Below, piece after piece: positions 454 to 50,265 of a stretch of DNA of 56,144 bases (positions within the stretch are counted from its first letter, which is position 1; the number at the start of each line of letters is the position of its first letter). The position numbers and the translations under genes were made by a program. The notes beneath the pieces are model-generated. The model made no database searches, had not been told where the DNA came from, and worked only from the letters and a program-made list of their open reading frames with translations. The DNA comes from a virus (Duplodnaviria > Caudoviricetes), in the IMG/VR virus record IMGVR_UViG_3300045957_000043, positions 1 to 56,144 of that record. One strand, 5' to 3'.

Positions 454-509
454 CCGTCAATCAGATAAAAGAGCAGGCATCGCGATGCCTGCAGAAAGGC
501 TAGAAACCC

Positions 510-623
510 ATGTTTACGGAACGTGACGCGATCTGTGTAGTTCTGATTCTGCTGGTCGGCGGTCTCGCCGAACTGTACCGGGTGCACTGTCAGCTAGAGG
601 AGCTTTGGCGCGATGACGAGTAA
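510..623 (+). CDS. Small hydrophobic early protein (37 aa; not in ORF track)
   Basis: MFTERDAICVVLILLVGGLAELYRVHCQLEELWRDDE; motif at 494-504, preceded by a 20-bp palindrome at 473-492. Confidence 0.65.
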   Translation: MFTERDAICVVLILLVGGLAELYRVHCQLEELWRDDE

Positions 624-813
624 CGTAGTCGGAGCTATACGGTATGCCGTACTCGAAAGCGATGAGTCTCTAAGATCGCTCGCCAGAAAAGCAGGCGTTA
701 ACGTTAGCGTAGTCTCGCGATTCGCATGTGGTCGCGATATTTCTGTCGATAACTTAACTAAGCTTGCCCGCGCGGTCGGGTGTGCAATCGCTATCGAAAG
801 GCTAGAAAGATGA
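613..813 (+). CDS. XRE/Cro-like helix-turn-helix protein
   Basis: SLRSLARKAGVNVSVVSRF...ISVDNLTKLARAVG HTH pattern. Confidence 0.8.
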   Translation: MTSNVVGAIRYAVLESDESLRSLARKAGVNVSVVSRFACGRDISVDNLTKLARAVGCAIAIERLER

Positions 814-881
814 GCGTCACAGCTTGGCTACTGTTGTCGATGATTGTAGTTGTCACTTCGATGTGTTTTTTGAAAGGCTAG
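810..881 (+). CDS. 23-aa hydrophobic peptide (not in ORF track)
   Basis: MSVTAWLLLSMIVVVTSMCFLKG; motif at 796-806 upstream; its TAG stop lies inside the next motif copy. Confidence 0.55.
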   Translation: MSVTAWLLLSMIVVVTSMCFLKG

Positions 882-884
882 ATT

Positions 885-1145
885 ATGAACGACAGATACC
901 CAACTCATAAGCCGTTTACCGACCCGGCTTGGTCAGCAGACATGCTCAGGGACTACGAAAGCAACGGTGGCGAAATCTACGTCTCGCGGGTCGACTGGTG
1001 CACCTCAACCGGGCGTCGAATCAGCCACGATATCGAAGCCCCCACGGAAGCTATCGCGAGACTACAGACTAGGCGTTTAACCGGACTTGGCGCCAACCGT
1101 GGCTATGAAGTTTTTGCACAAGATCACCCCACTAAGAAAGGCTAG
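885..1145 (+). CDS. Hypothetical early protein
   Basis: 86-aa ORF, motif at 872-882. Confidence 0.7.
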   Translation: MNDRYPTHKPFTDPAWSADMLRDYESNGGEIYVSRVDWCTSTGRRISHDIEAPTEAIARLQTRRLTGLGANRGYEVFAQDHPTKKG

Positions 1146-1155
1146 ATAGAAGATC

Positions 1156-1419
1156 ATGAAATTCAAACCCGGAACCCTAGTAGCAACGCGCGGAGCGATT
1201 GCAGAATTCTCCCAGAAAGAACTGCAGCGCAGCGTACTGCGCCATTTGCAGGCTGATTGGGGCGATACATGCCCGGAAGACGCGGAGCTTAACGACCGCG
1301 CGTTAGCCGACGGCGGTCGAATCCTGTCGGTATACGCTTTCCCAGAATCGCGCAGATTGTGGATTATCACGGAAGCCGACCGATCGGCGACTACGTGTTT
1401 ACTGCCGGAAGAATATTAA
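1156..1419 (+). CDS. Conserved plasmid/phage-related small protein
   Basis: F.PG.LVAT.GA...RH...DWG...ED...N..AL..G.RILS.Y...WIITEADRS.TT.LLPEEY signature. Confidence 0.8.
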   Translation: MKFKPGTLVATRGAIAEFSQKELQRSVLRHLQADWGDTCPEDAELNDRALADGGRILSVYAFPESRRLWIITEADRSATTCLLPEEY

Positions 1420-1613
1420 TGGACCGCCACGAATTCTTTACGTTGGAGGCCGAAATCAGTGAACTGTCCGAGAAGATCCGCGTGGCGCAGCATAGTCTTG
1501 TCCGCAACGGTCTACCTAGTTTTCGGCTCAAGCATGATTGTCTCGGCACAATGAAAGTTAACATCGACGTGCTTATCGCGCGGTTAAACTCGCTACGAGA
1601 TCAGATGCGATAA
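1419..1613 (+). CDS. Hypothetical protein
   Basis: ATG overlaps the upstream TAA (TAATG); MDRHEFF... Confidence 0.6.
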   Translation: MDRHEFFTLEAEISELSEKIRVAQHSLVRNGLPSFRLKHDCLGTMKVNIDVLIARLNSLRDQMR

Positions 1614-1624
1614 GCAAGGCGAGA

Positions 1625-1659
1625 CTACACCCGGTGCGAAGCTGTTGCACTGGGTGTAG
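1625..1659 (+). terminator. Stem-loop, possible terminator or processing site
   Basis: CTACACCCGGTGCGA / TTGCACTGGGTGTAG 15-bp stem. Confidence 0.45.
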
Positions 1660-1700
1660 CCGGTCTGTCTAATTATCACAGCTACACACTACACACAGGG

Positions 1701-1976
1701 GTGAAAAAGCGATACCAAGTTTACGTGGACAGAGGCAACGGTCTAGAGCTTGACGGTTGTTGGGGCAGCGAAGAAGCGACCAGCAACAACCGCAAAGAAT
1801 GCGAATTTTTCGCGCGGGGATCGCATCGTGACTACCTCGACTGCGCGTGGGTAGTCTACGACGAAAAAGCACGGGAAGAGGTCTACCGAATTGAATCGAA
1901 GCCGGCACCGACCGCCCTGGGAATTCCGTTGCCGTTGCCGTCGCGACTAGGAACAACAGCCCCGCAGCGGCGCTAA
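1701..1976 (+). CDS. Hypothetical protein
   Basis: 91-aa ORF with GTG start; converges on the minus-strand cluster. Confidence 0.55.
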   Translation: MKKRYQVYVDRGNGLELDGCWGSEEATSNNRKECEFFARGSHRDYLDCAWVVYDEKAREEVYRIESKPAPTALGIPLPLPSRLGTTAPQRR

Positions 1977-2320
1977 ACTTGCTCACCTAGGTACCGTCCG
2001 TGTGTAGTCTCGCCTGTGATGTGGTCTTTCGTGTAGATACCACGGGGTGAGCAATGATAGGTTTTAACCTGCTGGTCTAGGTTTAGGTTTTCAGACTGCC
2101 ATACTCTAACGCGGAGTATCCGCAACGCTGTAACCAAGACTTGCTTTGCAGACTTTGCTCTACACTGCAGGTTGTTTAGTTCTACGCGCGTTTGTGTCGG
2201 GTTGTGCGTGAGCACAAACTCAAAGCTTGGCGAGTTAACCAGCCCGCCGCCTGCTTGCGGGCCGGTACGCTTGACGTACTCGACCGAAACGTCTTTTAGA
2301 AACGTCTTTAGATCGGTCAT
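1973..2320 (-). CDS. Class I peptide release factor-like fragment with GGQ changed to GGG
   Basis: DVSVEYVKRTGPQAGGGLVN...VLTHNPTQ...QVKTY...TKDHITGET parallels RF2 DLRIDTYRSSGAGGQHVN...VRITHLPTG...QIRSY...VKDHRTGxET. Confidence 0.7.
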   Translation of the reverse strand: MTDLKTFLKDVSVEYVKRTGPQAGGGLVNSPSFEFVLTHNPTQTRVELNNLQCRAKSAKQVLVTALRILRVRVWQSENLNLDQQVKTYHCSPRGIYTKDHITGETTHGRYLGEQV

Positions 2321-2329
2321 AGTACCTCG

Positions 2330-2728
2330 TCAATCCCTTGCGCGGCGAAGCTCGTCCGCAAACGCCCGCTCGTAAGTAATTCCGTAGCACCCTGGGCCGA
2401 GCAGCCAATCACCGTGTTCCGGGTGGGTTACGGTCACCGGTTCGGTCACACGCAGGCACGGCCCGGTAAGAGCGCCGTTAGATCGCGTGAAATATTCGAC
2501 GCGATCGTGGCTCAGAATGTGACGGCTGCCCTTTGTGGTCCCCGGCGCAAGTTGTAACTGCACTAAAGCGGGTTTTCCTTCTGGTTCAGCGAGTTTGTGA
2601 ATTAACACGTCGCCTTGCCGCACGTACTCACCGACAGACGCGGCTACGGGAAACTCCTGTAGATCGTCGCAGCGGATTGCTTCGAGGCTTTCGCGAATAG
2701 ATTTAAAAACTTGGGCTGCACTTGGCAT
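2330..2728 (-). CDS. Conserved RQGDV/HPEH protein, usual partner of DUF6745 genes
   Basis: YVRQGDVLI, LAPGTTKGSRHIL, VTHPEHG...LGPGCY motifs. Confidence 0.75.
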   Translation of the reverse strand: MPSAAQVFKSIRESLEAIRCDDLQEFPVAASVGEYVRQGDVLIHKLAEPEGKPALVQLQLAPGTTKGSRHILSHDRVEYFTRSNGALTGPCLRVTEPVTVTHPEHGDWLLGPGCYGITYERAFADELRRARD

Positions 2729-2743
2729 GGGTTTCTCTCCTGG

Positions 2744-2941
2744 TTAAATGGTACCCAGATCGTTTCGTAACTGGCTGTCTAGCTGACTGCGGAGCTGGTT
2801 GTGGAGCTGGCTGCGGAGCTGGTTGTGGAGCTGGCTGTAGAGCTGGCTGTAGAGCTGGCTGTGGAGCTGGCTTTCGAGCTGGCTGTAGAGCTGGCTGTAG
2901 AGCTGGCTGTGGAGCTGGTTGTGGAGCTGGGTGCCTATCAT
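2744..2941 (-). CDS. Tetrapeptide (xSQL) repeat protein, 65 aa
   Basis: MIGTQLHNQLHSQLYSQL...; ATGA overlap with the DUF6745 stop. Confidence 0.65.
   Translation of the reverse strand: MIGTQLHNQLHSQLYSQLYSQLESQLHSQLYSQLYSQLHNQLRSQLHNQLRSQLDSQLRNDLGTI
2772..2930. repeat. 12-bp tandem repeat array (GAGCTGGCTGTR-type)
   Basis: About 13 imperfect units read directly from the sequence. Confidence 0.95.
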
Positions 2942-3750
2942 GATGCACCGACGCACTTTCCGTCTGGCGCGTTTCGCACCCAAGACTGAGCCTCGCCGCA
3001 GGTCGAGACGCCTTGCGGTACTTCCAAGAAGTACACACGGGCGGTCGACGGGCACCCGCAGACCAGCACCCGAATTCCTTCGCACTCAAACAATGCTTCT
3101 TCAGTCGCCTCGATGTCATTCCGGCGCCGGTCTAAAACTTTCGCGCGGGTGGCTTTCAGAAACTTGTCCCAGCCGTACCGCTCGATCGCAATCCGGCGGA
3201 CCTCTTCGCTGTCTTCGGCTCTGATCTGCGCCACGGTTAGCGTCTCAGGTCGCATAACGATCTGCTCGGTGACACGAACCCCCGAAATCGAGTACACTCC
3301 CCAGCCGTCCCTGAATCGCACAGATGGCCCTGTATCGCAATGCAGCTCGCCAGCCTGCCAGTGTACCTCTACCGGCCTCCGAGAGACTACGGGGCTGTCT
3401 GAGAGGGCTACAAACGGACATTTCCAGCACCACTGATCAAAAGCCTCTAAAGTCTCCGAATCGAACTCTACGCCGACCAACTCGGCGCCGCGATACCACC
3501 CCGCCCACGCGGACCACCACCAGGACGCATAGTAGGGCACGTCGCCGGCGAGCCGCATCGCCGCGAGCGGCGAATCAGCCACGCGAACTTTCGGGCGGGG
3601 GTGGCCGAACCTCGCCCACATATCGCCCAGAGCTTCCGCAATCTCCGCGTCGGTGTACTGCTCGGTCTGCCTCGCGAGCCACGGGTCTTTGAAGCGTTCA
3701 ACTTGTGCCCACTGGCGGGAGGTTAACGACTCGATTCGTTGGCTGACCAT
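2938..3750 (-). CDS. DUF6745 domain protein
   Basis: ELHCDTGPSVRFRDGWGVYSISGVRV...EEVRRIAIERYGW...CPSTARVYFLEVP. Confidence 0.8.
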   Translation of the reverse strand: MVSQRIESLTSRQWAQVERFKDPWLARQTEQYTDAEIAEALGDMWARFGHPRPKVRVADSPLAAMRLAGDVPYYASWWWSAWAGWYRGAELVGVEFDSETLEAFDQWCWKCPFVALSDSPVVSRRPVEVHWQAGELHCDTGPSVRFRDGWGVYSISGVRVTEQIVMRPETLTVAQIRAEDSEEVRRIAIERYGWDKFLKATRAKVLDRRRNDIEATEEALFECEGIRVLVCGCPSTARVYFLEVPQGVSTCGEAQSWVRNAPDGKCVGAS

Positions 3751-18372: not shown

Positions 18373-18804
18373 TTAGCCCAAGACTGCAGTGTATTCTCCG
18401 CACCAATGCCGGTCGCTTACGGCAAGGGGGTTCGGGAACCTATGGCAGATCCCGCTCCCGCTGTGGGACTGGTAAAAAGTACAAGACACACACGCGGGCT
18501 CCGCTACGGACTGATTTTCTTCAGGCTGGCTTGCTTCGGGCATTTGTTGCTGCTCCAGTTTTTCTAGGTCTTCGATTGTTTGGCGAAAAATGGGTTCGTC
18601 TCGCCACGGCGGTTTGGGTAGCCATTCTGGCCACCAGCGATTCGGGTCCGGTGTCGGCTCCGGCGACGGCCAGGGGATAATCCGCTGGATTTTACCCTGG
18701 ACGAGCCCGATACCGTGCCCGACCTTAAACCCAACAAACAAGCCTGCTGCCAGGATGAGCGCGCCCACAACTAGCGAGCCCCAGGCTCGTAAAGCCTCTA
18801 GCAA
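18373..18804 (-). CDS. Membrane-anchored protein with a C-terminal Cys4 domain
   Basis: N-terminal TM, Pro/Trp linker, CVSC...GICHRFP...WCGEY. Confidence 0.7.
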   Translation of the reverse strand: MLEALRAWGSLVVGALILAAGLFVGFKVGHGIGLVQGKIQRIIPWPSPEPTPDPNRWWPEWLPKPPWRDEPIFRQTIEDLEKLEQQQMPEASQPEENQSVAEPACVSCTFYQSHSGSGICHRFPNPLAVSDRHWCGEYTAVLG

Positions 18805-18815
18805 CGGATCACCTC

Positions 18816-19178
18816 CTAACGGGTTTGTAAGCGATTCAGCCAGACCTTAATGGTATTAGCTGACGCTAAGCCCTGTAGCCGACCGATCTCTCTGCCGTGG
18901 CGATAGGCAGTCAATGTTGGTACAACCGACACTGGCGGACGAGCTATCTTGCGTAGTTCGATATGAGCCCATCGAATGTCCCGTCGTTGCCGATAGACTT
19001 TGTTAACGATAGGTGTCATTTTACCGCACGGTGGGCACGACTGAGCGTGCCAATACAGCACACTTAACTGAGCGGTATCGGCCCATTTGCGAATCCGCGC
19101 GTTTTCTGCGGAGAAGGCCGCTTGGCCAACGAAAAAAATTGCGAATACTACCGCCATTACCGCTAGATTTTTGAGCAT
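18816..19178 (-). CDS. Exported thioredoxin-fold protein
   Basis: Signal-like N-terminus; YWHAQSCPPCGKM CxxC; VVPTL cis-Pro; GREIGRLQG. Confidence 0.85.
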   Translation of the reverse strand: MLKNLAVMAVVFAIFFVGQAAFSAENARIRKWADTAQLSVLYWHAQSCPPCGKMTPIVNKVYRQRRDIRWAHIELRKIARPPVSVVPTLTAYRHGREIGRLQGLASANTIKVWLNRLQTR

Positions 19179-19260
19179 TGCTAGCAACAATCGTCGTATA
19201 TAGTGGGGGTAAGATACCTGACTATTACATTGTAGGCTTTCTAAGAGAGAAAGGTTTAAC

Positions 19261-19641
19261 ATGCAGGTTAAGTTTGCTGACTACCCGTGGGTCGCCAGGG
19301 CTATTGCTAGTCGCGGCGGCAACTACAAATTTCCACCCGAGCGGTTTTCGGCGCGTCGTTTAGTGGAGTACCAAGGGCGGCTCATCTATGCTGCGTCGCA
19401 ACTCGAACTGATCGCTGATATGCTACAGAAATACGGCGTCGAAGCGGTTGATCTCGTCGGGGGAGACAACATCGAAAACGCCGTGAATCTTGTTGAGCGA
19501 ACTGTGGGGCTGATCGCGGATCAGTGCTCAGGGTATGCGATCCACTATAAGACGAAACAGTCGTTTGTTACTGACGAGCCCGGCGACGCCCCCAAAAGAA
19601 AACGGGGGCGCCCTAGAAAGAAACCGCACGACGAAGCTTAG
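19261..19641 (+). CDS. Hypothetical protein with a C-terminal AT-hook
   Basis: KRKRGRPRKK; GAAAGG RBS. Confidence 0.75.
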   Translation: MQVKFADYPWVARAIASRGGNYKFPPERFSARRLVEYQGRLIYAASQLELIADMLQKYGVEAVDLVGGDNIENAVNLVERTVGLIADQCSGYAIHYKTKQSFVTDEPGDAPKRKRGRPRKKPHDEA

Positions 19642-20516
19642 ATAGGTTTAGGCGATTTCAGCGTTTCGGGGACAACCCGCGAAATAAGGTAGTGCTTTCG
19701 AAAAGTACTTTCGTTCGCGTGGCCCAGGTGAGTGCGGCCAGCTTCAATCCCGTATCTGCGGAATACATCTGTGCCGCTTCCGGCTCTTAGCCCGCCCAAG
19801 GTGTGACCAGGGAAACCGCCGGCTTGCTTAATAATCCGGGCAGCTTCGCCGAAAAAGTGGCGCTCGTCCCCTGGCAAGGGGAAAACTAACTCGCGAGCAG
19901 GAAGCTTGATCTTTTCGATGGCTCTGAGTGTATTCTCTGAGAACCGCCAGCAAATCGGGTTTCCGGTCTTCTCGCGCATGCGCACGACTACCCCGTCTTC
20001 CTGGATCTGGTCGAACCTAAGCGATCTCAAGTCTTTCGGGTGTGAACTGTCCCAAGTTGCGCGAATATACGCGACCCAGAAATCCCCGCGACAGATCCCA
20101 TTGCGCCTGTATTTTTTACTCAACCACTTCCGGTATCGCGGTAGCGGGTTTTCCAGTCGGTGAATCAGCTCTGAAGCTTCTTCCCAGGAAAACCCTTCAG
20201 TCGGTTTCGAGTCTTGACGGATCTTTACAGTGTTGTACCGCGACAGCTCTTCGGTGATCAGCTTTTGAGCCCTCGCGGCGTTGCACAACACACAGAGGAT
20301 AGTCTTGTAGAGCTTCCGTGTGCTGGAAGCGAGTCCGTCTGTTCTCAGCTGAACAAGATGCCGGTTGACCGCTTCCGGGTTCAGGTCTTCGACGGTTGCT
20401 TCCCGCCCTAGCGTGGCGCTGAATTTCTTCACCGTGAGATGCAGCGTTTTGACGTATTTCTTGCTGAGGTCTTCTCGTAACAGGATGTAGCTGTCGACAA
20501 AATCGCGAAGCAACAT
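19638..20516 (-). CDS. int: Tyrosine recombinase/integrase (catalytic residues partly degenerate)
   Basis: SAM-like N-domain, EKTG, GLR, HLGH, RKHY; GGAGAGGA RBS. Confidence 0.8.
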   Translation of the reverse strand: MLLRDFVDSYILLREDLSKKYVKTLHLTVKKFSATLGREATVEDLNPEAVNRHLVQLRTDGLASSTRKLYKTILCVLCNAARAQKLITEELSRYNTVKIRQDSKPTEGFSWEEASELIHRLENPLPRYRKWLSKKYRRNGICRGDFWVAYIRATWDSSHPKDLRSLRFDQIQEDGVVVRMREKTGNPICWRFSENTLRAIEKIKLPARELVFPLPGDERHFFGEAARIIKQAGGFPGHTLGGLRAGSGTDVFRRYGIEAGRTHLGHANESTFRKHYLISRVVPETLKSPKPI

Positions 20517-20552
20517 AGTGTCCTCTCCTAGTAAGCTGAACCAGCCAGAATC

Positions 20553-20790
20553 ATAGGCTGAACAAACACAAACGATAGGCTGCACGAAATGCAAACCTCA
20601 AACCGACGGGTCTATTATATTAGACTAAGCATCGGTAGGTCAATACCATCGGCCTACTATGCCAGCCTAGGTAATATAGGCCGCCAAGGGCATGTAACCA
20701 AAGTAGCGAATCGCTTCGGGCTGTCAACAAGCTAGGCTGCACAACCGCTAAAGAATAGGCAGAAGTATCGCCGAACCATAGGCTGCACAA
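20553..20790. promoter_or_regulatory. Direct repeats (A)TAGGCTG(C/A)AC, putative operator or arm-type sites
   Basis: Copies at 20553, 20575, 20733, 20778. Confidence 0.6.
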
Positions 20791-22275: not shown

Positions 22276-22530
22276 GTGCTTGATCTCTTTGTCGTTCTCG
22301 CGGTCGCCGTGGCTTGGGGGGTTTTTGTCTACTCGCGCAAAAAGCCCTTGGAAGGCGGCGTGCCGCCCGGCTCCGAGTCCGCGCAATATCGCGCGCCTTG
22401 CGACTTGTCGCGGGTGAAATGCCTGCTAGAGACACTCGACCCCGAAAAAGACGCGGAGTTGATCGAAGCGATCGTGCGGGCCAGAGTATTAGCCGAGTTA
22501 CCCCAGTCAGTTAGAGACAAACTGAAATGA
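22276..22530 (+). CDS. Small membrane-anchored protein
   Basis: N-terminal TM; ATGA-coupled to the next gene. Confidence 0.7.
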   Translation: MLDLFVVLAVAVAWGVFVYSRKKPLEGGVPPGSESAQYRAPCDLSRVKCLLETLDPEKDAELIEAIVRARVLAELPQSVRDKLK

Positions 22531-22997
22531 ACGATCGGATCGTTAGCGCAGGGACGGTGATCATCTTAGCACTGCTCGTACTGGTGCTCGGGCGGCGGCT
22601 AGTAAACCAGCTCCCAGGGATCGCACCGGATACTAAGCTTCCCGCGAATCTTCAGCCGATTTCGCAGCAAATCTACACTCATATCGGGGGGCAGCCTAAC
22701 GCCCAGCAGGATTGCCGGACGCTCGCGGCACTTTTTCAAGGCTATCAAAACTTGCTGGCAAGCGACGGCAAGGCAGCTCTCTATTACGTTGCTGACCGGG
22801 GCTCGCTCAAAGCCAGATTCGCGCAAATGGGCGAGCTAATCGTAGGGCCTGATTGGCAACTCGGGGAGCGGTATCCGGGGCTGGCGCCAGTGCTCGCCGA
22901 GTACTGTGCACCGATTGATGAATTCCCTGGAGGCCGCGCGCAAGCGGTGCAGCGTTGCCGTGAGCTAGTCGTGGTATTCAGCCACTTGGCTAACTAA
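22527..22997 (+). CDS. Membrane-anchored hypothetical protein
   Basis: N-terminal TM helix, 156 aa. Confidence 0.75.
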   Translation: MNDRIVSAGTVIILALLVLVLGRRLVNQLPGIAPDTKLPANLQPISQQIYTHIGGQPNAQQDCRTLAALFQGYQNLLASDGKAALYYVADRGSLKARFAQMGELIVGPDWQLGERYPGLAPVLAEYCAPIDEFPGGRAQAVQRCRELVVVFSHLAN

Positions 22998-23011
22998 TCA
23001 AGGGGCTTGGG

Positions 23012-24052
23012 ATGACGTTTTTGCGTTGGCTGCTTGTTTGCTGCGGACTGGTCTTTTTAACGGCTACAGCAGGCGTCTCCCAAGAGCCGGCAGCTGACTT
23101 TTCAGTTAACAAAGAAGGCTGGCGGTACGAGCCGGAAGTACTCGAAGCCGCTATCAAGCGGGTTCCCCGTAAGTTTTACGCGCAAGCCGCGATCCTCGCT
23201 GAAGACAGCGACGAACGCACGGTGCTACTGTACCGGTTTGTAGTGCAGGCTCGGGGACTGCCTGCTGGAACTACACTACCAACGCGCGACCAAGGCAACG
23301 TCGGTTCGTGTGTAGGTTACGCGACAGCCAACGCGGTTGATCATTTAAGTGCAGTCCAGATCTACTTGAAAGGGCTGCGCGAGCGATTCGAGGCAGCCAG
23401 CGCGCCGGCGCTTTACGGCATCGGGCGGCAACAGGCTGGTCAACTCGGCGGGTGGGACGGGAGCACCGGTGCCTGGAGCGTCGAGGGAATTCAGCAGCTC
23501 GGCGCGTTGTGGCAGCTAAGCTACGGCGAAGCGGATCTTAGCCGTGAACGACCCAGCGATGCAAAGAATTTCGCCTCGCGGGGGCTGCCGGCAAGCTTAC
23601 TAGAGATTGCACGGGAAACACCCGTGCAGGCGCACGTCGCGGTGCGCGACTGGAAACACGCTCGCGGGCTAATTCAGTCGGGCTTCCCGCTCATCGTGTG
23701 TTCGGACGTGGGCTTTGATAACGGCTCGCGGGGCACACAACGGGACAATCTCGGGTTTGCCTCCCCGCGCGGGTCGTGGATGCACGCGATGTGCTGTGTC
23801 GCTTACCGAGGGCCGGACACGGGGCGCGAAGGTTTTCTGATTTTGAATTCCTGGAACCCGCGTTATATCTCGGGGGAAAAGTGGCCTGAAGACCAACCAG
23901 AAGGGAGTTTTTGGGTCACGCCGGAGGTCCTCGGTAGAATGATTTCAAAGCGGGACACCTGGGGCATTTCAGCGTTAAAGGGTTTCCCTAAAAAGGAACT
24001 CACCCTTCTAGAAATTTTTGAAAACGCAGGTGGGGCGAGAACGGAGAACTAA
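23012..24052 (+). CDS. Secreted papain-like (C1) cysteine peptidase
   Basis: Signal peptide; RDQGNVGSCVG, WMHAM, ILNSW. Confidence 0.9.
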   Translation: MTFLRWLLVCCGLVFLTATAGVSQEPAADFSVNKEGWRYEPEVLEAAIKRVPRKFYAQAAILAEDSDERTVLLYRFVVQARGLPAGTTLPTRDQGNVGSCVGYATANAVDHLSAVQIYLKGLRERFEAASAPALYGIGRQQAGQLGGWDGSTGAWSVEGIQQLGALWQLSYGEADLSRERPSDAKNFASRGLPASLLEIARETPVQAHVAVRDWKHARGLIQSGFPLIVCSDVGFDNGSRGTQRDNLGFASPRGSWMHAMCCVAYRGPDTGREGFLILNSWNPRYISGEKWPEDQPEGSFWVTPEVLGRMISKRDTWGISALKGFPKKELTLLEIFENAGGARTEN

Positions 24053-24054
24053 CG

Positions 24055-24264
24055 ATGTCACGCAGTATTGCTGTCGGGGTCGTACTCGGGGGTCTCGGCT
24101 TGGTCGCAGACACGGCGATCGAGCACCCACCAAAAGAAACCGGGCAGGCGGCTGTCGTCTTGACGGCGCCGGTTACGTCCCCGCATATTGCTCAGCAGCA
24201 GCAGCAGGAACAGCCTACGGGCGATCCGGGGTTTGAGTATTACGCTATCCACGATATGAAGTAA
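24055..24264 (+). CDS. Small membrane/secreted protein
   Basis: Hydrophobic N-terminus, GGAG RBS. Confidence 0.6.
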   Translation: MSRSIAVGVVLGGLGLVADTAIEHPPKETGQAAVVLTAPVTSPHIAQQQQQEQPTGDPGFEYYAIHDMK

Positions 24265-24269
24265 GTGTT

Positions 24270-24485
24270 ATGGGCTGAGGCTGCCGCAAAAAGAAAGCGC
24301 GTGCCGCTTTCGGAAAACCACTGAGCGTAAAAGTTGTTTCCGGCCTGCCTCAGCCGACTGTCATGAGGGGACCGGCGACTAATACGAACTATGGGCGCCG
24401 TCAAGACGGTGATGTCTTCACGGTGTTTGAAAAGGACGTGGAACCGCTCGTCAAAGACGAAACGGTCCGAATCGAAGTCGTGTAG
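24270..24485 (+). CDS. Putative selenoprotein (UxC motif, in-frame UGA at codon 3), 71 aa; not in ORF track
   Basis: MG*GCRKKK...TNYGRRQDGDVFTVFEKD; paralog of 24498-24707; SECIS-like hairpin at 24293-24311. Confidence 0.7.
24293..24311 (+). promoter_or_regulatory. Bacterial SECIS-like hairpin
   Basis: GAAAGCG-CGTGC-CGCTTTC; loop starts 21 nt after the UGA; GU at loop positions 2-3. Confidence 0.55.
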
Positions 24486-24497
24486 GAACCCGATGCA

Positions 24498-24707
24498 ATG
24501 CCTTGTTCAAGTTGTCAGAAACGCCGCGAAGCGCGACTGCGAAATACTGAAATGGTCAAAGTGAAGTTTGTGGATCTACACCCTACAGGCGTGATCCTGC
24601 AGGTTGGCATGACGAACTACGGTTTTCGCAAAAACGGGGACGTTTTGAAAATGTTCAAAACCGACTTCGAGAAGCTGAAATCAGGAGCCGCCGAAATTGT
24701 TGAGTGA
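24498..24707 (+). CDS. Small CxxC protein, paralog of the putative selenoprotein
   Basis: MPCSSCQKRR...TNYGFRKNGDVLKMFKTD. Confidence 0.8.
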   Translation: MPCSSCQKRREARLRNTEMVKVKFVDLHPTGVILQVGMTNYGFRKNGDVLKMFKTDFEKLKSGAAEIVE

Positions 24708-25026
24708 GAGCCCCATCTGGCCGTTAGTCGTCGCGCTTGCCGTGTGGCGCGTCACGCACATGATCACTGATGAAGACGGACCGTTGCGCGTGTTGTGGTA
24801 TTTGCGCGAGGCTTTGGGAGGGAACCAGCCTGACCCATCGCCGGGGTCTGCTGGGGACTTAATCAGTTGCGCGTATTGTCTGTCGGTGTGGGTCGCGCTG
24901 GTGTTTGTACTCTTAATGCAGCTTAACCTGAGAGCTGTGAATATCGGTTTCGAAGTACTCGCGCTGAGTGCCGTCTCGGTCTTCGCGACGACACTGCATA
25001 ACTACGTCAACGACCAGCTAAGCTAG
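24697..25026 (+). CDS. DUF1360-like membrane protein with CxxC
   Basis: LAVWRVTHMITDEDGP...LISCAYCLSVWVAL; about 3 TM segments; AGGAG RBS. Confidence 0.85.
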   Translation: MLSESPIWPLVVALAVWRVTHMITDEDGPLRVLWYLREALGGNQPDPSPGSAGDLISCAYCLSVWVALVFVLLMQLNLRAVNIGFEVLALSAVSVFATTLHNYVNDQLS

Positions 25027-25032
25027 AGGGGG

Positions 25033-26229
25033 CTAGGTGTAGGTGACGCAGCTACCGGGGTAGTCAGGGTGACCAGTTCCGATATTGCGGATGTCGTATT
25101 TCCCAAATGACGGGAACGTAGCGTCGTTGCAGTCTGAGTACGATTCGATTTCGAATGCGAAGCACACACCGTCAGCCGGCACGTAGCCCGGCTGCGCCGT
25201 GACTTCGGCAAGGATCGCACTGACGTTAATCGGCACGTAAGTCTGTGTCGGACCACCAAAGGGAGCCCAGCTGTTAGACGGCTGAGCAGTGAGCGTAACA
25301 GACGCGGTGCTCAAAGCCCCGAGACTTAGCGACCCGACAGGCGTTCCGGCGTGACCCCGGATACGGAGCACCATCGTATCGCAATTCCCTAGGGAGTCTT
25401 CCATTGCCTGCAGATGCAGCACACCGGAAGTCGTGTTCGCGGGGATATCCGGCGAGCAAATCAACGGAGTTCTTTGGTTGCCGTTAGTCGGGTCGTGTCC
25501 GACATTCGGTCCTGCCGTCTGCGGTTGTACAGCCCAAGTGGATTCACCCTCGACGCGAGCCAGAATCGTGTTGTTGCAGCTCCCTGCTGGGTTTTCGCAA
25601 CACGTTTCATACGGAATCCAGACGCAGGAGCCGTCTGCGCCGTGGGAAAGTACTTGTTGCTGCGAAGCGATGTACCCAGGAAGTTGCCCAAGCTGCTCGC
25701 ACACGTCACTCTCGCCGCCGCAGAAGTCAGCTTCCCACCGCGCGGAGTTTGCGTTCCAGGTAGCGCAGATACGGTCTGCGCTCAGCGGCGCGGCGTCCTC
25801 CTCTGCCGGGCAGTTGCCGTCCAAGCAGGGAATGAAAATCTCATACGGCTGGTCAGACCGCTCGGTCCACAGTCCAGTACACGGCTCAGCTTCAGCCCAA
25901 AGCGCATAAATACTCGGAGTCGATGACGAGTAGGTCGCGTCGCCACACGTGACGGTTTTGCAAGTGAGTAGATTCTGCGTCGCGTCTGCGGGAATCCCGA
26001 ACGTACCGGCTGCCTCTTCAACTTCCAGATCAGTCATCGGACGAAAGCACTGTCGCTTGGGCAAACCCGTGATCGAGATGTTAGTCTTCTCGCCAACGGT
26101 TTTGATGTTCAGCGGCGGTGTTACTGATAAGCTCTCGCGGAGTTTCGCCGCGATCGCCTTGATCGCACTACCGGAGAGCTTATTCGTGCGCGTCGTGTCG
26201 CTGACTGCAGGTTTCTTGCGGAACACCAT
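25033..26229 (-). CDS. Cys-rich tail tip/fibre-like virion protein
   Basis: Last gene of the tail operon; 18 Cys/398 aa. Confidence 0.7.
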   Translation of the reverse strand: MVFRKKPAVSDTTRTNKLSGSAIKAIAAKLRESLSVTPPLNIKTVGEKTNISITGLPKRQCFRPMTDLEVEEAAGTFGIPADATQNLLTCKTVTCGDATYSSSTPSIYALWAEAEPCTGLWTERSDQPYEIFIPCLDGNCPAEEDAAPLSADRICATWNANSARWEADFCGGESDVCEQLGQLPGYIASQQQVLSHGADGSCVWIPYETCCENPAGSCNNTILARVEGESTWAVQPQTAGPNVGHDPTNGNQRTPLICSPDIPANTTSGVLHLQAMEDSLGNCDTMVLRIRGHAGTPVGSLSLGALSTASVTLTAQPSNSWAPFGGPTQTYVPINVSAILAEVTAQPGYVPADGVCFAFEIESYSDCNDATFPSFGKYDIRNIGTGHPDYPGSCVTYT

Positions 26230-27470
26230 TAAGGGTTAACCACCCAGCTGCTACCAGGAATCTGGTCGGATCGTTCTTCTGAGACGTTCGGAAACACTTG
26301 CGAGATACCGCAGAATGTTACCGTTGCAGTCCCTAAAGGTACAGTTGCAAAATCAAGCGACAAGAGATTCGCGAAGCTCGTCGAGGGGTAGGGCTTCTGC
26401 TCGCACTCGACGCTCTGGATTTCCAAAAAGTGACAGCCGATTTCGCAAGAGGTGTTCGGCTCCCAAGTACCGCCGGCGTCGATGCACGCTTGCTCGGTCA
26501 TCTGTGCAGTGCTGGTATCCGGTAGTGTACACGTGCCTATTGGGTTTTCGCTGCCTTCGCCAAGTGGATTACGCCGCCACGCACGGTTCCAGGCGCCGAC
26601 AACGCCGCTACACGCGCAACCGGCGGCGAGCGTTTCAAACGGGCACTTAGGTACAGTCTTGACGACGAAAATAAACTCAACATCGTAGGTCGGAGTGCAG
26701 TACCAAGTCGGTCGCTCGGTGATCTCCGCGTCAGCCAGCAATACAGACTCGCACGGGAGATTATCAAACATCGGCTCGCTGTTGACGTGGCCCACAGCAT
26801 TGCGGATGGTGTCGTGCGGCACATACGGCAGGTTCGACCAGCGAACCCGGTAAGTCGTTGTGTTGATCGCGATCGCCGGGTTGATATCTTCGTCCGTGAG
26901 GACTTGACCGTCGACGATGTACTCGAAGGACCTACCGGGGAGCGTCTGCACGTCGAGTTCGTTTTCTGTTTCGACCTCGATAAACGTGCAGTTCGCGATC
27001 GCAGGCAGAATCGGCGCGCAATCATCCGGCAGGCATTCGCTGCGCATCCAGATCGGCCAATTCGCAAAGTTCTTGTGCCGGTAGTTGACTGTAATCTCGA
27101 CAAAGCCTTCACCAACTAGCGGCGCGGTCATTAAGTGCGGCACACCGCACGCGGTAGAGACCGTCGTGCAGCAGTTCTGTAGCGGCTGAATCGTGAAGTC
27201 TTCAGGGTAAAGCGTTGAAGTCCCGCCACAGAGATCAGTCGGGCAGAATAAAGCCAGCGGCTTGGGTTCGGCAGCACAGTGTACTGTGCAGTCTTCGTAC
27301 TGCCAGATGCCGAAAATCTCAGTGATAAAGCTTGTAGCATAAAACGCCGGGCCGATGTATTTCATTACCGCCGTGGCGCCGTCTGGATTCTGCGTGAGTA
27401 CCGGGTAGCCCGCCTCGACTTGATAGCCGAACGCAAGATTCCCGATTCGCGAGCAGTCGTTGATCGTCAT
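26229..27470 (-). CDS. Cys-rich tail tip/hub-like protein
   Basis: Immediately after the tape measure; 22 Cys/413 aa. Confidence 0.7.
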   Translation of the reverse strand: MTINDCSRIGNLAFGYQVEAGYPVLTQNPDGATAVMKYIGPAFYATSFITEIFGIWQYEDCTVHCAAEPKPLALFCPTDLCGGTSTLYPEDFTIQPLQNCCTTVSTACGVPHLMTAPLVGEGFVEITVNYRHKNFANWPIWMRSECLPDDCAPILPAIANCTFIEVETENELDVQTLPGRSFEYIVDGQVLTDEDINPAIAINTTTYRVRWSNLPYVPHDTIRNAVGHVNSEPMFDNLPCESVLLADAEITERPTWYCTPTYDVEFIFVVKTVPKCPFETLAAGCACSGVVGAWNRAWRRNPLGEGSENPIGTCTLPDTSTAQMTEQACIDAGGTWEPNTSCEIGCHFLEIQSVECEQKPYPSTSFANLLSLDFATVPLGTATVTFCGISQVFPNVSEERSDQIPGSSWVVNP

Positions 27471-27471
27471 G

Positions 27472-30400
27472 TTAGACTAAGCCCCCTAGTTGATCAGGCG
27501 CGCGGCGCGCAAATTCAATGCCTTGCGCAAGAGCAGAAAGCTCCCGCTGAATCGCCGCGATGCCGTTGGCAGTGCGTTCTTGCTGCTGGAGCATTTTGGT
27601 TTCTGTAGTCACGGACTGCTGTAGCTGATTGCGAAAGTCAATGATTCCGAAAATCTGTGAGCGAACTTGCTGTGCGACGCTGTTGATGTCCGGCTCGGGC
27701 GCCGGTGCGCCTTGCTGCTGGCTGCGCTGCTGTTCGCGCTCCTGCTGAGCTTTTAGGCGGGCTTCCTCTTCAGCTTTGATAATCTTCTCGCGTTCGGCGA
27801 GTTCTTTTCGGTAAGCATCCGCACGGCGGTCCAGCTCGCCCTCTGCGATCCTGAGCTGCAGTTCGTTAGACACGGCATCCCCGAAGAACGTTAGCAGTTG
27901 ATCTTCGAACCCGCCGAGTAACTGGGCAGCGATCTCCGGCGCGCGGAACGGGTTACGGATCGCGTCGGTGATCCTTGCGATTACTCTGAAAGTGTTGTCC
28001 GCGAGTGCTTTCGCAAAGTTGATCGCGACACCGACCAGCTCGTAGCCAAAAGCTTTCGCGCGATACACCGCGATGTTAAACACCAGCTCGAAGTTATCCG
28101 CTAAGAACGTGATACCCTCGATCAAGCTATCGAAATTCTCGATACGAAACGCACGCTTGAGCCTTGTTTCGAGTTCTTCAAGGGCTGGCAGGGCTACCGC
28201 GCTAAGCCTGCGGAAACCCTCAGTCAACCGGATAATTGCGACGCCGTTGATGACCGACAGAATGCTAACGAGCCGCTGCCCCGCAGCGACGATCGGTGCG
28301 AAAAACTCAGCCGCGCGTCCGCTTTGGACAAACTCTTTGATGCGGTCGATCACGAGAGTAACCGACGTGGCTACGCTCTCAACGAACCGCGCGAATGCGG
28401 GGTTCTCACGGAGAAACCCGATTGCCTTGCCGATCTCCAGGCCGATCGTGCGGAATACACCTAAGAAGTTAGCGGCAACCTGCCGTCGCAATAGAGTAAA
28501 CTGATTGCCGAGTGTAGTAACGACACCGCTAAGTGATTCAGCCTGCAGTACAGCCTGCTCGAAAAACTCACTAAACGCCTGATCGCCTACGGCTTTAATA
28601 AACTCGCGGGCAGAAATCTCGTTATTGCGAAGAGCCTCTGTCAGAGCCTCCCCAGATTTACCGATTGCGCGTTCGACCAAGCCGATCGCACCGGGGAGAC
28701 CCTCGGTGAGCTGGTTGTTAAGTTCTTCGCTACGCAGTACACCCTTCGAGATCACTTGCTCATAGGCTCGAAACACGCGGTTCAGGTCGCTGGTTTCGAC
28801 ATTCAGGACGCGGGCGGCGGCAGCTGTGCCCCGGAAGAGCTGGAAAATTTCGTCTTGCGGAACACCTGAGTTCTTCGCGGCGGCTGAGATTTTACCGTAG
28901 AGATTCTCGATCTCGTCCAGCGGCACTGCCAGTTGCAAAGCCAACGCCTGGATTCTTTGTAGCTCTGCCTGGGAATCTGCCCCGAATGCAAAGCTAAACC
29001 TCAGCCTGATATCTTCGAGCCGCTGTGCAGTCTGGAATAACGCACGAGTTGCTAAGCCGCCGACTGCCGCTGCAATGAGCGGGAGATTCGCAACTAGATT
29101 GCGAATGCCTCGGGCCAGAGCGATCGTCGGACCTAGCGCGAACGTAACCGCACGAGTGAACGCGCGAAATGCAGTTCTGGCTACGAAGAGTAACGCTTGG
29201 CCTAGTGCACGGGTTGCGGCGACTAAAGCCTGTAGCCCCACCAAACCGCCGACTACCAACGAGCCGATACCCACTCCCGCTAGACTTGCAGCTGAACCGA
29301 CAAGCCCTAGGTTCTGAAACACCCGGACGGCAGACAGTCCGACACGGCCCAGCGCTGCCGCGTAGTTACCGATTCTGCCGCTGGCTGCGCCTAAGTCGAA
29401 GCCGAGCTGACGGATACTCGTGAGTGTAGTCTGGGCCTGCCGTGCTCGTGCGCCCTCGATCGTGGCGAGTCTCGTAGTGACCTGCAGCTGCAGCCGCAAG
29501 ATTCGCAAGCGTTGCTCGGATGTGATGTTTTGCTGCTCTAGTTGAGCCTGCACCCGTCGTTGGATCAGCGTTAGCCGCAGTCGTTCGTCGACGGCACCTT
29601 TAGCCCGCAAGACTTCTTCTCTTTGCTGGTTAAGCCGTTGTCGCTGGTCACGGGCTTGACCGCGACTGATTTCACGTTCCCGCTGCGCGTCTCGTTGGCG
29701 GCGCACCGCGCGGGCTCGGCGGTCACGGGCGGCTTGCTGCACTTGCGTGCGGTTGGTCACCCGTAACAGCCGAGCTTCCGGTGATGTGTCCTCGCGGGCA
29801 ATGCGCTGACGCTCTTTCGCGGCTTCCCGCAGGGCGCGTTGCTCTCTTGCGCGAATGAGGCTTCTTGCTTTTGCGTTACGCTTGAGCTGTTCCAGTTCAG
29901 TCCGCGCAGTGACTCGGGCCAGCCGAGCTTCGATCGAAGTTCCGGTGCGACGCAGTTCGCGCTGTTGTTCTCTTTCGCGTCGTCGACGGAGCGATCTAGC
30001 TCGTGCATCGCGGCGGACCTGCTCGATCTCGGCGCGCTGGGCTAATCTCGCTCGTCTGCCTTCCAGGCTGGTAGACTGCAGCAAGGCTCGCTGCCGTTCA
30101 CGCTCAGCGCGCTGAACTTCACGAGCTTGACGCCGTAGTGTAGCCAGTTCCTCGCGGGCAATCTGGTCGCTGACTTTCTTGCGGCGCGCAGCAAATAGCC
30201 TTCGAGCCAAGATTCTTCGAGCTAGAATTTGCTCTTCAGTTCTCGCGGCAATCCGCTCTCGGCGAGCTTCGAGGGTGTCGGCCCTGACTTCAGTAGGCTG
30301 GCGTGATCTACCAACGCGCGTTGTAGAGCTAGATTCCTGCCGGGCCTTTTGGACAGCGCTAGATAAAGCTGCAGCTCCCGTCGCGGCGACGGTAATCTTC

Positions 30401-30507
30401 TGCTTGCCGAGCCGCTTGCTGATCTTCTCCAGCTCGCGGAGCTGCTTGAAGACTTCTTCTAAGCCTTGCGCGCGAACCGTGATGAAAGTCGATAGCAGCT
30501 CAAACAT
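27472..30507 (-). CDS. Tail tape measure protein
   Basis: ~1011 aa helical; AYEQVISKGVLRSEELNNQLTEGLPGA tape-measure motif; follows the chaperone genes. Confidence 0.92.
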   Translation of the reverse strand: MFELLSTFITVRAQGLEEVFKQLRELEKISKRLGKQKITVAATGAAALSSAVQKARQESSSTTRVGRSRQPTEVRADTLEARRERIAARTEEQILARRILARRLFAARRKKVSDQIAREELATLRRQAREVQRAERERQRALLQSTSLEGRRARLAQRAEIEQVRRDARARSLRRRREREQQRELRRTGTSIEARLARVTARTELEQLKRNAKARSLIRAREQRALREAAKERQRIAREDTSPEARLLRVTNRTQVQQAARDRRARAVRRQRDAQREREISRGQARDQRQRLNQQREEVLRAKGAVDERLRLTLIQRRVQAQLEQQNITSEQRLRILRLQLQVTTRLATIEGARARQAQTTLTSIRQLGFDLGAASGRIGNYAAALGRVGLSAVRVFQNLGLVGSAASLAGVGIGSLVVGGLVGLQALVAATRALGQALLFVARTAFRAFTRAVTFALGPTIALARGIRNLVANLPLIAAAVGGLATRALFQTAQRLEDIRLRFSFAFGADSQAELQRIQALALQLAVPLDEIENLYGKISAAAKNSGVPQDEIFQLFRGTAAAARVLNVETSDLNRVFRAYEQVISKGVLRSEELNNQLTEGLPGAIGLVERAIGKSGEALTEALRNNEISAREFIKAVGDQAFSEFFEQAVLQAESLSGVVTTLGNQFTLLRRQVAANFLGVFRTIGLEIGKAIGFLRENPAFARFVESVATSVTLVIDRIKEFVQSGRAAEFFAPIVAAGQRLVSILSVINGVAIIRLTEGFRRLSAVALPALEELETRLKRAFRIENFDSLIEGITFLADNFELVFNIAVYRAKAFGYELVGVAINFAKALADNTFRVIARITDAIRNPFRAPEIAAQLLGGFEDQLLTFFGDAVSNELQLRIAEGELDRRADAYRKELAEREKIIKAEEEARLKAQQEREQQRSQQQGAPAPEPDINSVAQQVRSQIFGIIDFRNQLQQSVTTETKMLQQQERTANGIAAIQRELSALAQGIEFARRAPDQLGGLV

Positions 30508-30745
30508 GCTTGCCTCCCTTATGCAGCTGGGCGAATCCGGCAAACTTTCGCATTAGAGCTGCTTGCGCGTCTTTGATTTCTGCCTCGGAGGGTTTTTCTC
30601 GGTAGCCGAACATCAACAACCGATCGTAGTCACTCATCGAGCGAATGTAGTCCAAGGTCCATCCGGTTTCGCGGGCTAAGCCTGCGTAAGCTTCTTCGAG
30701 TGTCACCCGCTGCGTTCCTTCGCCGCTGGGCGGGATTAGTTTTTT
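30500..30745 (-). CDS. Tail assembly chaperone, -1 frameshift extension (GT-like)
   Basis: A AAA AAC at 30745-30739; the -1 frame reads KKLIPPSGEGTQRVTLEEAY...GWTLDYIRSM. Confidence 0.8.
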   Translation of the reverse strand, partial: KKLIPPSGEGTQRVTLEEAYAGLARETGWTLDYIRSMSDYDRLLMFGYREKPSEAEIKDAQAALMRKFAGFAQLHKGGKHV

Positions 30746-48722: not shown

Positions 48723-50264
48723 TTAATCTGATTCTACGCCTGGGTCTGTAGTGCTAGTCCCTGCTGGGTACAGTTCACGGTGGCGACTGATCTCAGACTG
48801 CATTTGGTTGTAGTCCACGTTGAGCCTACGCGCGGCTTCCTGAACCGAGATAATCGCGGGGTGATCTGCAGTCTCACTAGCCAGCGAGATTACCATCTGG
48901 GCTTCTTTCGTCTTGTCGTTTTGCTCGGTCAACGGGAAGCTAGGTCGGATGATCACTTTCGCGCGGGCGTCTTTGATCGAATCCGGCTGCCAGCCCAAAA
49001 TTGCGGCGATACCTATCCATTGCAGCTCTTGCTCATAGAACCACATGGTTGTTTGCTCGCGCAAAACCCGCCGGCTAAACGGCCCGGTTGCCGAGACTAA
49101 ACTGCTCCGGTTTCCGGTGTTCGCATCCCCGAACATGAACTCCGGGATCTGCCGGATCGAGCCGATCGACCGTTGTAGCGCCTGGATCACCTCGATGTAG
49201 TTTCGGGCGTTCACTTTGAAGCCGTGCATCTCCACATCAATGTTTTTCAAGTGATGCTCTAAAGGATCTCGCCCCCTGGTGGACATTTGGCTATTCAGCT
49301 CTTCAGCGCGCCTTCCGATCACGTTTTGGACCGCCGCGCGGCGATTCGTCTTCGCGTGCTTATGGACTACCGCGTACTTGCTTTGCTTGATAGCTAACTC
49401 AGCCATCGACTGGGTGACTTCCTGGAGCAGCGCAACCACACAGCCGACCGCCAGAAACGGCGGGACTCCCCTCGGGTCGTTCACGTCGACCACGTTTTTT
49501 CCGTGCTGCACTTGGCTAGCCGGGACGTACTCAAACTCGTCACTCTCACCCGTCTGCGAGATTCGGTGCCAGTACCCTACAGGCATCGCGGCATCACCGG
49601 GCATTGCCACGATACCGAATTCCCCTGGGACTACATTCTCTTCGAGTAGTGACGCCACGAAAGACGGTACGGGGCTGATCACTTGCCGGGGGTCAGTCGG
49701 CTGCCGCACGTCCATCGGTTCCATGAATCTCACGTGGAACTCGCCGTTCACGTAAAACCACCGGCGGAAGAACTCCCCGTCTCGCACATACCGGCGGTAC
49801 GTCTCTTCCTGCATGAAGTACCAGCCCCGGAGGTTCCCGAGATGCACGTTTTCGACTAAGTACTGGTGAGCAGTACGAACGGCTTTCAGGCGTTCTTCCC
49901 TGAACGGATCAGTAGAGTCTCGGTTGGCGACCGTGTATTTCCAGCCGTTCGCCACCGTGTAGCTAAGCATCGCTTCGGTCGCCGCGATGATATTCGGGTC
50001 GCGAGCCAGTTTGAAACTTGCCTCTTGCATGGTATCCAGTGACCCTTGGTCACCGCTTTTGTACGGGAGGTGCTTGCCGTCCTGCAGTCCTTCTCTAGTC
50101 AAGAAATCAAACTCATCGCGGACTGTCTGCAGTCTACCTAAGCAGTCCTGTAGTCCGCGCACGTCGGCTTCAAGCAGCCCGAATTCAGTAAACTCCTCAA
50201 CGGCTTCGGTAAGCACATTGGGTTTAGTCTCGGGCTCAGCAAGAGCAGTAGTAGATTCAGTCAT
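48723..50264 (-). CDS. Portal protein
   Basis: Follows terL; RDGEFF, V.H.K..VD...RGVP, IPEFMFGDA..N..S. Confidence 0.85.
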   Translation of the reverse strand: MTESTTALAEPETKPNVLTEAVEEFTEFGLLEADVRGLQDCLGRLQTVRDEFDFLTREGLQDGKHLPYKSGDQGSLDTMQEASFKLARDPNIIAATEAMLSYTVANGWKYTVANRDSTDPFREERLKAVRTAHQYLVENVHLGNLRGWYFMQEETYRRYVRDGEFFRRWFYVNGEFHVRFMEPMDVRQPTDPRQVISPVPSFVASLLEENVVPGEFGIVAMPGDAAMPVGYWHRISQTGESDEFEYVPASQVQHGKNVVDVNDPRGVPPFLAVGCVVALLQEVTQSMAELAIKQSKYAVVHKHAKTNRRAAVQNVIGRRAEELNSQMSTRGRDPLEHHLKNIDVEMHGFKVNARNYIEVIQALQRSIGSIRQIPEFMFGDANTGNRSSLVSATGPFSRRVLREQTTMWFYEQELQWIGIAAILGWQPDSIKDARAKVIIRPSFPLTEQNDKTKEAQMVISLASETADHPAIISVQEAARRLNVDYNQMQSEISRHRELYPAGTSTTDPGVESD

Positions 50265-50265
50265 T

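Follow-up and report, generated by a model that had tools for sequence, protein, structure and literature searches.

Three adjacent genes at positions 24270-25026 of the IMG/VR virus record IMGVR_UViG_3300045957_000043 raise the question of what a small membrane protein with a CxxC motif does beside two short proteins that begin with a cysteine pair, and what a TGA codon is doing inside the first of these pairs. The window analysed here is the whole record, a linear stretch of 56,144 nucleotides (nt) with a CheckV completeness of ~68%, and its source is a temperate siphovirus-like phage. The three genes are the last of one + strand operon and encode the Cys-hook paralogs P1 (24270-24485, +; 71 codons followed by TAG) and P2 (24498-24707, +; 69 residues, ending in TGA) and a 109-residue membrane protein of the DUF1360 family (24697-25026, +; TTG start at 24697). 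Spacing is tight, with 5 nt before P1, 12 nt between P1 and P2 and an 11-nt overlap between P2 and the DUF1360 gene. An earlier note on this DNA had described three neighbouring genes with the redox-type motifs UxC, CSSC and CAYC; the spacing and the last two motifs are indeed present, whereas the UxC of P1 is a reading of the TGA and not an observation. It is best explained as a phage version of a two-part module that is widespread but so far undescribed. This copy adds the phage-type gene order with two hook genes, a location beside tail genes rich in Cys and a TGA where a hook Cys codon would be expected.

A conserved gene pair

The pairing of DUF1360 and Cys-hook genes is strongly conserved. 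Hook proteins are defined by an initial Met, two Cys among residues 1-6, basic residues thereafter and no signal peptide, and were counted as open reading frames (ORFs) of 50-160 residues that begin with a Met, 0-2 residues, a Cys, 0-2 residues and a second Cys, on the same strand and 200-650 nt past the start of the DUF1360 match. Among 80 loci fetched with the DUF1360 alignment (272 relatives were confirmed in species genomes), a hook gene lies directly downstream of DUF1360 in 74 (72 by script and two cut by contig ends), against a background, in the same loci, of 17 hook-type ORFs in 255,887 bp of the same strand and 21 in 398,596 bp of the other. A second set of 80 loci was drawn from at least 552 relatives in metagenomes; DUF1360 could be located in 79, and 71 of these have a hook downstream (64 by script and seven by eye among 12 printed). 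The remaining eight comprise three loci with at most 154 nt of room, one with the hook upstream (L159) and four without a hook. The earlier proposal that small Cys-motif proteins belong with DUF1360 is thus well borne out, and the pair, which has neither a name nor a partner family, spans many bacterial phyla, including by record title Acidobacteriota, Bacteroidota, Proteobacteria, Myxococcota, Chloroflexota, Actinomycetota, Fibrobacterota and others. The hook heads of the 72 scripted bacterial loci are MSCC (27), MCC (12), MGCC and MCNC (eight each), MPCC (six), MACC (five) and others, usually followed by Gly and Lys/Arg.

A large frame (at least 300 codons, mostly 710-830 residues) precedes DUF1360 in 64 of the 80 genome loci, giving a three-gene operon. 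Neither of the two such proteins scanned (L032 and L077) belongs to a Pfam family, and 49 upstream frames of at least 600 codons fall into BLAST groups of 21, 10, 7, 5 and fewer members. A relative of the large protein was sought in the window by tblastn, which gave nothing better than E 0.04.

The bacterial order, with the hook after DUF1360, is reversed relative to the window, and the hook-first order recurs in two phage-like contigs, L003 (positions 177-3273 of an 87-kb viral contig; hook head M-G-C-S-S-C) and L159 (positions 3-1497 of a metagenome contig; hook head M-P-C-G-C). Each of these two hooks begins at a Met inside a multi-glycosyltransferase ORF, at its end, and DUF1360 is followed by related proteins of 346-403 residues; the L003 hook ends in an RpoA-CTD-like helix-hairpin-helix domain. 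Viral-contig scans with DUF1360 alignments found two contigs only, and searches of isolate phages with the DUF1360 protein of the window and with protein P0006 returned nothing. DUF1360-like genes also lie directly upstream of the portal gene in four actinophages (loci L166-L169), namely the Gordonia phages Phinally (gp12), GMA2 (Orf8) and Sixama (gp71) and the Microbacterium phage Big4 (gp70). GMA2 Orf7 and Sixama gp70 are overlapping upstream genes of 57-61 residues with several Cys in zinc-ribbon-like spacing, and these are not N-terminal hooks.

The membrane protein of the window matches Pfam DUF1360 (PF07098) with 32.9 bits (cut-off 21; residues 13-99 on profile positions 3-100 of 102) and PHROG 781 with E 1.4e-9. 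The family has no assigned function, and in the literature, as far as its accessible parts go, two papers name DUF1360, in passing. The protein has two Cys in total, both in the motif C58-A-Y-C61 at the start of the second hydrophobic helix, and carries W17-R-V-T-H21 and E26-D-G-P29 upstream of it. In alignment A4 (72 sequences) W17, R18, E26, R37, C58, C61, S63 and W65 are invariant and T20, H21, D27, G28 and P29 nearly so; an invariant CxxC here and a DUF1360-adjacent family defined by its N-terminal Cys pair place the motifs of the earlier note beyond chance. Only the TTG start at 24697 keeps the conserved first helix, which an 88-residue form from ATG 24760 would lose. Helices are predicted at 8-24, 32-39, 51-76 and 83-108, three of them long and one short and amphipathic, in a model with a predicted local distance difference test (pLDDT) of 71 and a predicted template-modelling score (pTM) of 0.35. 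Mean Lys plus Arg counts are 3.25 in loop 1 before the CxxC and 2.59 in the C-terminal tail, as opposed to 0.42 at the N-terminus and 0.93 in loop 2, which joins helices 2 and 3. Under the positive-inside rule these values favour an N-out/C-in topology, which would place the CxxC on the cytoplasmic side.

A BLASTP alignment that begins at residue 4 of P1 (2e-8, 34% identity) shows P1 and P2 to be paralogs. The head of P1 reads M-G-TGA-G-C followed by R-K-K-K and that of P2 M-P-C-S-S-C followed by Q-K-R-R, and in both proteins the Cys pair at the N-terminus is followed by basic residues and then by a small beta domain; P2 is a hook by definition, P1 only if its TGA stands for selenocysteine (Sec) or Cys. 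No signal peptide is seen in the hook proteins. P2 has no Pfam (E up to 10), PHROG or NCBIfam family and the hook family as a whole no Pfam or NCBIfam model, while the only Pfam match of P1 is a weak one of its N-terminus to DUF7196 (E 0.029, below the cut-off), a family of which we found no mention in the literature. The AlphaFold2 model of P2 (pLDDT 73.6, pTM 0.50) has a helix at 4-15 and then five short strands, and its closest PDB match by Foldseek is a GINS B-domain (E 0.07). An ESM Atlas search gave scores up to 0.86 and no named neighbour, and its structure matches included a GINS C-terminal domain. This fold and a Cys pair at the very tip of the chain, together with the missing Pfam match, mean that P1 and P2 are not the thioredoxin-like carriers that had been supposed.

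Relatives of the phage hooks are scarce. With phmmer, P2 recovered from 1.84 billion representatives itself and one 224-residue protein, which also has the hook head C-S-S-C; the hook protein P0003, with its C-S-S-C head, carries a 130-residue extension. Orthologs of P1 or P2 were not found in viral, metagenome or protein collections: viral-contig scans with the single proteins P2, DUF1360, P0003 and the 412-residue tail-tip protein gave no relative, a word-index search with P1 brought up nothing beyond the 40-residue ORF of the window, and none of the 285 stretches that fitted the pattern in a metagenome scan with the phage-hook alignment was confirmed. Three tblastn matches of P2 in isolate phages were rejected as chance matches antisense to annotated genes. 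Phage and bacterial hooks nevertheless look homologous, as suggested by an hhalign probability of 80% (E 1.4e-5) for the phage hooks against 68 bacterial ones over 31 C-terminal columns (P1 with a stray final C) and by an end-to-end MAFFT alignment of 67 hooks in which P2 shows 14-27% identity; on these comparisons, the phage hooks may share a C-terminal beta domain with the pattern T-x-x-Y-x-F ... G ... V-D-x-x-D.

The TGA codon of P1

The in-frame TGA (24276-24278, +) is codon 3 of P1 and occupies the first hook Cys position. It aligns with Cys in the C-S-S-C of P2, P0003 and L003 and in the C-G-C of L159, and only one sequence carries TGA there. The same codon appears in a Logan contig of 39,004 bp (depth 15.8) from the sole run that holds the stretch. 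As this run is the probable source of the record, the check compares assemblers and not samples: it excludes an artefact of assembly, whereas a genuine mutation would pass it. No RNA datasets holding the stretch are listed. Under translation table 11 the only start for P1 is ATG 24363, which gives an ORF of 40 residues; since the match to P2 runs from residue 4, the likeness of the two proteins reaches upstream of this start.

We lean towards the view that P1 is a redundant duplicate in which a nonsense mutation turned TGC or TGT into TGA; P1 would then be a young pseudogene, or would be made only as a hookless 40-residue protein from ATG 24363, and the work would be left to P2. The intact paralog lies only 12 nt downstream, and a loss would be tolerable. 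TGA is moreover an ordinary stop in eight of 35 genes, P2 among them; this count, and the lack of any other convincing TGA-split gene among 153 candidate frames, led us to reject a global recoding of TGA. Neither a tRNA-Sec nor any other tRNA was found in the record, which is ~68% complete, and Rfam gave nothing at gathering scores across the window, with two chance matches around P1. None of 159 further DUF1360 loci has a TGA in its hook, and no ortholog was found that would show the codon to be conserved. A release-factor mimic was considered as a cause of read-through in the form of a 115-residue protein (1973-2320, -) with G-G-G in place of G-G-Q, and was dropped for want of a Pfam RF-1 match; this protein has no Pfam match at E up to 0.01.

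Several features fit a pseudogene less well. Of the 20 single-base changes that would create a stop in the 71 codons of P1, only two affect the codons of the hook Cys pair. Apart from the TGA the frame stays intact over 69 codons, and a resemblance to P2 persists in codons 4-31, although these fit the in-frame codon model weakly (1.74 nats, compared with a median of 6.95 for pieces of real genes). The upstream stop lies 5 nt before ATG 24270. At ATG 24363 no Shine-Dalgarno-like bases can be seen by eye, and a start there would open a gap of 98 nt in a tight operon.

That the TGA is instead read as selenocysteine is possible but somewhat unlikely. On the + strand a hairpin with a 7-bp stem and a 5-nt loop (24293-24311) begins 14 nt past the TGA and is compatible with a selenocysteine insertion sequence (SECIS), with SECIS-like spacing and G-U in the loop. 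Its energy (-7.1 kcal/mol) is ordinary, since 52% of 500 control TGA triplets do as well or better; only a stricter hairpin rule, set after this hairpin had been seen, would make it rare (4 of 1577). On the - strand, where five T come after it, the same element is picked up by a terminator-like scan, ~720 nt beyond the end of the tail operon. Codon 3 would be an unusually early site for Sec. On balance, a nonsense-hit duplicate seems the likelier explanation. Improbable, in our estimate, is the full proposal that P1 is a phage selenoprotein with a Sec-Gly-Cys hook and that DUF1360 and hook form a new membrane-bound thiol/selenol oxidoreductase at the cytoplasmic face, serving disulfide-stapled virions. 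The stakes of the two readings differ: with P1 as a mere pseudogene, the window would add a further example of the DUF1360/hook module, whereas a Sec-encoding TGA would point to a redox catalyst rather than a metal clasp and would make P1 the first selenoprotein gene reported in a phage, a search of the literature by phrase for phage-encoded selenoproteins having found no paper.

Possible chemistry of the pair

In the model that we tentatively put forward, the first part of the module is DUF1360, with three transmembrane helices, most likely N-out/C-in, and a CxxC that would sit at the cytoplasmic start of helix 2 near the conserved His of W-R-x-T-H and the E-D-G-P motif. The second part would be a small cytoplasmic hook, whose Cys pair lies among residues 1-6 and is followed by Lys/Arg; a variable linker connects this tip to a beta domain of ~45 residues. 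In this phage two hook genes are placed directly upstream of DUF1360, and P2 is probably translationally coupled to it. The basic N-terminus may draw the hook Cys pair to the inner face of the membrane, where it could exchange thiols with the CxxC of DUF1360. The sequences establish the genes, the family motifs and the gene pairing; such a hand-over is a serious, if still tentative, possibility, and disulfide (or selenenyl-sulfide) exchange is, we think, the likeliest chemistry. Any oxidase activity, electron acceptor or substrate is conjectural.

In this phage the substrate may be the Cys-rich virion proteins encoded next door, a further step that we regard as doubtful. The stop of DUF1360 (25026) lies 6 nt from that of a convergent tail-tip gene (25033), which agrees with the earlier description of the three genes as converging on the end of the tail operon, and a conserved membrane CxxC protein with dedicated Cys-pair partners thereby adjoins two Cys-rich tail-tip genes, one of 398 residues with 18 Cys (25033-26229, -) and one of 413 residues with 22 Cys (26229-27470, -). 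That the virion proteins are rich in Cys is also correct. Among the proteins counted (25033-47710, -), Cys makes up 4.5% and 5.3% of the tail-tip proteins, 4.4% of a 518-residue probable capsid protein and 7.0%, 11.0% and 6.9% of three small head or connector proteins, a range of 4.4-11% in shell and tail-tip proteins; the tape measure (0.1%, one Cys in 1023 residues) and the portal (0.6%, three in 519) are Cys-poor. The replication proteins are also fairly Cys-rich (2-3%).

A number of observations weigh against such a relay, which is unproven. The Cys-rich substrate does not generalise, the large upstream partner in bacteria being mostly not rich in Cys (only 11 of 64 reach 3% Cys). Hooks are missing beside DUF1360 in six of the 80 genome loci, in the four metagenome loci already mentioned, which had room for one, in L002 and in the actinophages Phinally and Big4. 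The search patterns held the CxxC-L-S-V-W and W-R-V-T-H motifs, so the invariance of these residues is partly ascertainment, and the topology was read from the charge count alone. Searches with DUF1360 for known folds gave no match with Foldseek, nothing in a profile search of PDB sequences and, with VIA-align against 48,161 chains, a best Z of 6.7 to generic helices. The comparison with VKOR and DsbB that the earlier note had called for placed neither among the 50 matches listed, an absence that does not show a different fold; the model is of only moderate quality. A complex prediction for DUF1360 and P2 (alignments A4 and A6) scored 0.00 twice with a mark of 0.32 and carries no weight either way. 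Finally, a Cys pair with His and acidic residues nearby would suit metal binding no less than redox chemistry.

This last point leads to the strongest of the other functions, a zinc clasp of the kind formed by CD4 and Lck, in which the hook Cys pair and the CxxC of DUF1360 would bind one metal ion and tether the hook and its cargo to the inner membrane, with no redox turnover. Two Cys pairs on two chains would supply four ligands, and the conserved His and acidic residues would suit such a site; the varied cargo of the hooks (the RpoA-CTD-like domain of L003, the extension of P0003) and the zinc-ribbon-like Cys spacing in the overlapping upstream genes of GMA2 and Sixama are in line with a tether. 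The hook spacing, however, varies between CC, CxC and CxxC, which is unusual for a fixed metal geometry, although such variation could still occur, and we consider a clasp unlikely.

Lower still, and very improbable, ranks a lipid anchor, with DUF1360 as a DHHC-like membrane acyltransferase that S-acylates the hook Cys pair. Hook heads, with a small residue after the Met, a Cys pair, Gly and then Lys/Arg, resemble the dual-acylation signals of the eukaryotic proteins Lck, Fyn and GAP-43 (Met-Gly-Cys or Met-Leu-Cys-Cys, then basic residues), at which DHHC enzymes act, and a conserved His and Cys at the predicted cytoplasmic face could make an acyl-enzyme site. Pfam, fold and PDB-profile searches, however, gave no similarity to DHHC or any other acyltransferase, we know of no cytoplasmic protein S-acyltransferase in bacteria, and Sec in P1 would be a poor stable anchor. 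A lysis role, with DUF1360 as a class I-type holin or holin regulator for a secreted papain-like protein and P1 and P2 as cytoplasmic regulators, would suit an operon shared with that peptidase-like protein and a 69-residue transmembrane protein, and a DUF1360 of ~100 residues with three helices and a favoured N-out/C-in topology is built like a class I holin, but many bacterial phyla have the family in three-gene operons outside phages, its place in the four actinophages is immediately before the portal gene and not in a lysis cassette, and its invariant CxxC, His and E-D-G-P are not holin features, so that we find this extremely improbable.

Surrounding genes and known systems

The + strand operon (22527-25026) that ends in the module converges on the end of the tail genes. 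Its three upstream genes (22527-24264) are tightly spaced and provide context only, nothing indicating that they act with the module: a 156-residue protein is encoded at the start of this segment (+), followed by a 346-residue secreted papain-like protein (23012-24052, +) and a 69-residue protein with an N-terminal transmembrane helix (24055-24264, +). The 346-residue protein has a signal-like N-terminus and weak similarity to Legionella Lpg2622 (E 6e-4); papain-family chains match it at E 0.28-0.74, and there is no Pfam Peptidase_C1 match at E up to 0.1. On the - strand lie the tape measure (27472-30543), portal (48723-50282) and terminase (50266-51741) genes, and an integrase is encoded at 19638-20594. 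The terminase is less than 30% identical to that of any isolate and gives no indication of the host.

A thioredoxin-fold protein with an S-C-P-P-C motif and a signal-anchor-like N-terminus is encoded at 18816-19262 (-). It is the CPPC thioredoxin of the earlier note, which had counted it as an exported member of the relay; 5 kb away and on the other strand, it belongs to a separate module. Its gene adjoins that of a membrane protein resembling high-potential iron-sulfur proteins (HiPIP). This neighbour, a 143-residue protein encoded directly downstream (18373-18804, -), has an N-terminal hydrophobic helix and a C-terminal four-Cys stretch that matches Pfam HIPIP with 22.3 bits (cut-off 22).

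How does the module compare with what is known? The DUF1360 protein of the window matches both PF07098 and PHROG 781, and shares with them W-R-x-T-H, E-D-G-P and CxxC-x-S-x-W. P1 is like bacterial selenoprotein genes in having an in-frame TGA that aligns with Cys in a paralog and homologs, and a hairpin 14 nt downstream with G-U in its loop; it is unlike them in that the hairpin energy is no better than chance, the record holds no Sec machinery and no ortholog was found.

The earlier note had likened DUF1360 to DsbB and VKOR. The pair does resemble DsbB with DsbA, and VKOR with its thioredoxin-like partner, in consisting of a small membrane protein with a CxxC at the membrane interface that is linked by its gene to a soluble Cys-pair protein. 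The likeness goes little further. DsbB and VKOR have four helices and two essential Cys pairs that face the periplasm, whereas DUF1360 has three helices and one Cys pair, with a CxxC that is predicted, by the Lys plus Arg count, to be cytoplasmic; its partner does not have a thioredoxin fold, no quinone site can be proposed, and no similarity of sequence or fold was found. Poxviruses encode a cytoplasmic disulfide pathway for their virion proteins, formed by E10R, A2.5L and G4L. The virion proteins of this phage are likewise Cys-rich, but the components are unrelated, and none of the 34 window proteins scanned has a Pfam match to an Erv1/ALR-type flavin adenine dinucleotide (FAD) oxidase.

A further point of contact is Jabs, a siphophage of Mycobacterium abscessus with a disulfide-stapled virion, whose 2026 cryo-EM preprint leaves open whether virion disulfides form spontaneously or are catalysed by oxidoreductases of host or phage (bioRxiv 10.64898/2026.07.24.740622). 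Neither DUF1360 nor thioredoxin nor 'membrane protein' is mentioned in the main text of that paper (bioRxiv 10.64898/2026.07.24.740622). Compared with Jabs, the phage of the window is known from its genes alone, and it offers a candidate gene set beside Cys-rich virion genes, which makes concrete the question of how phages build heavily disulfide-bonded virions in a reducing cytoplasm.

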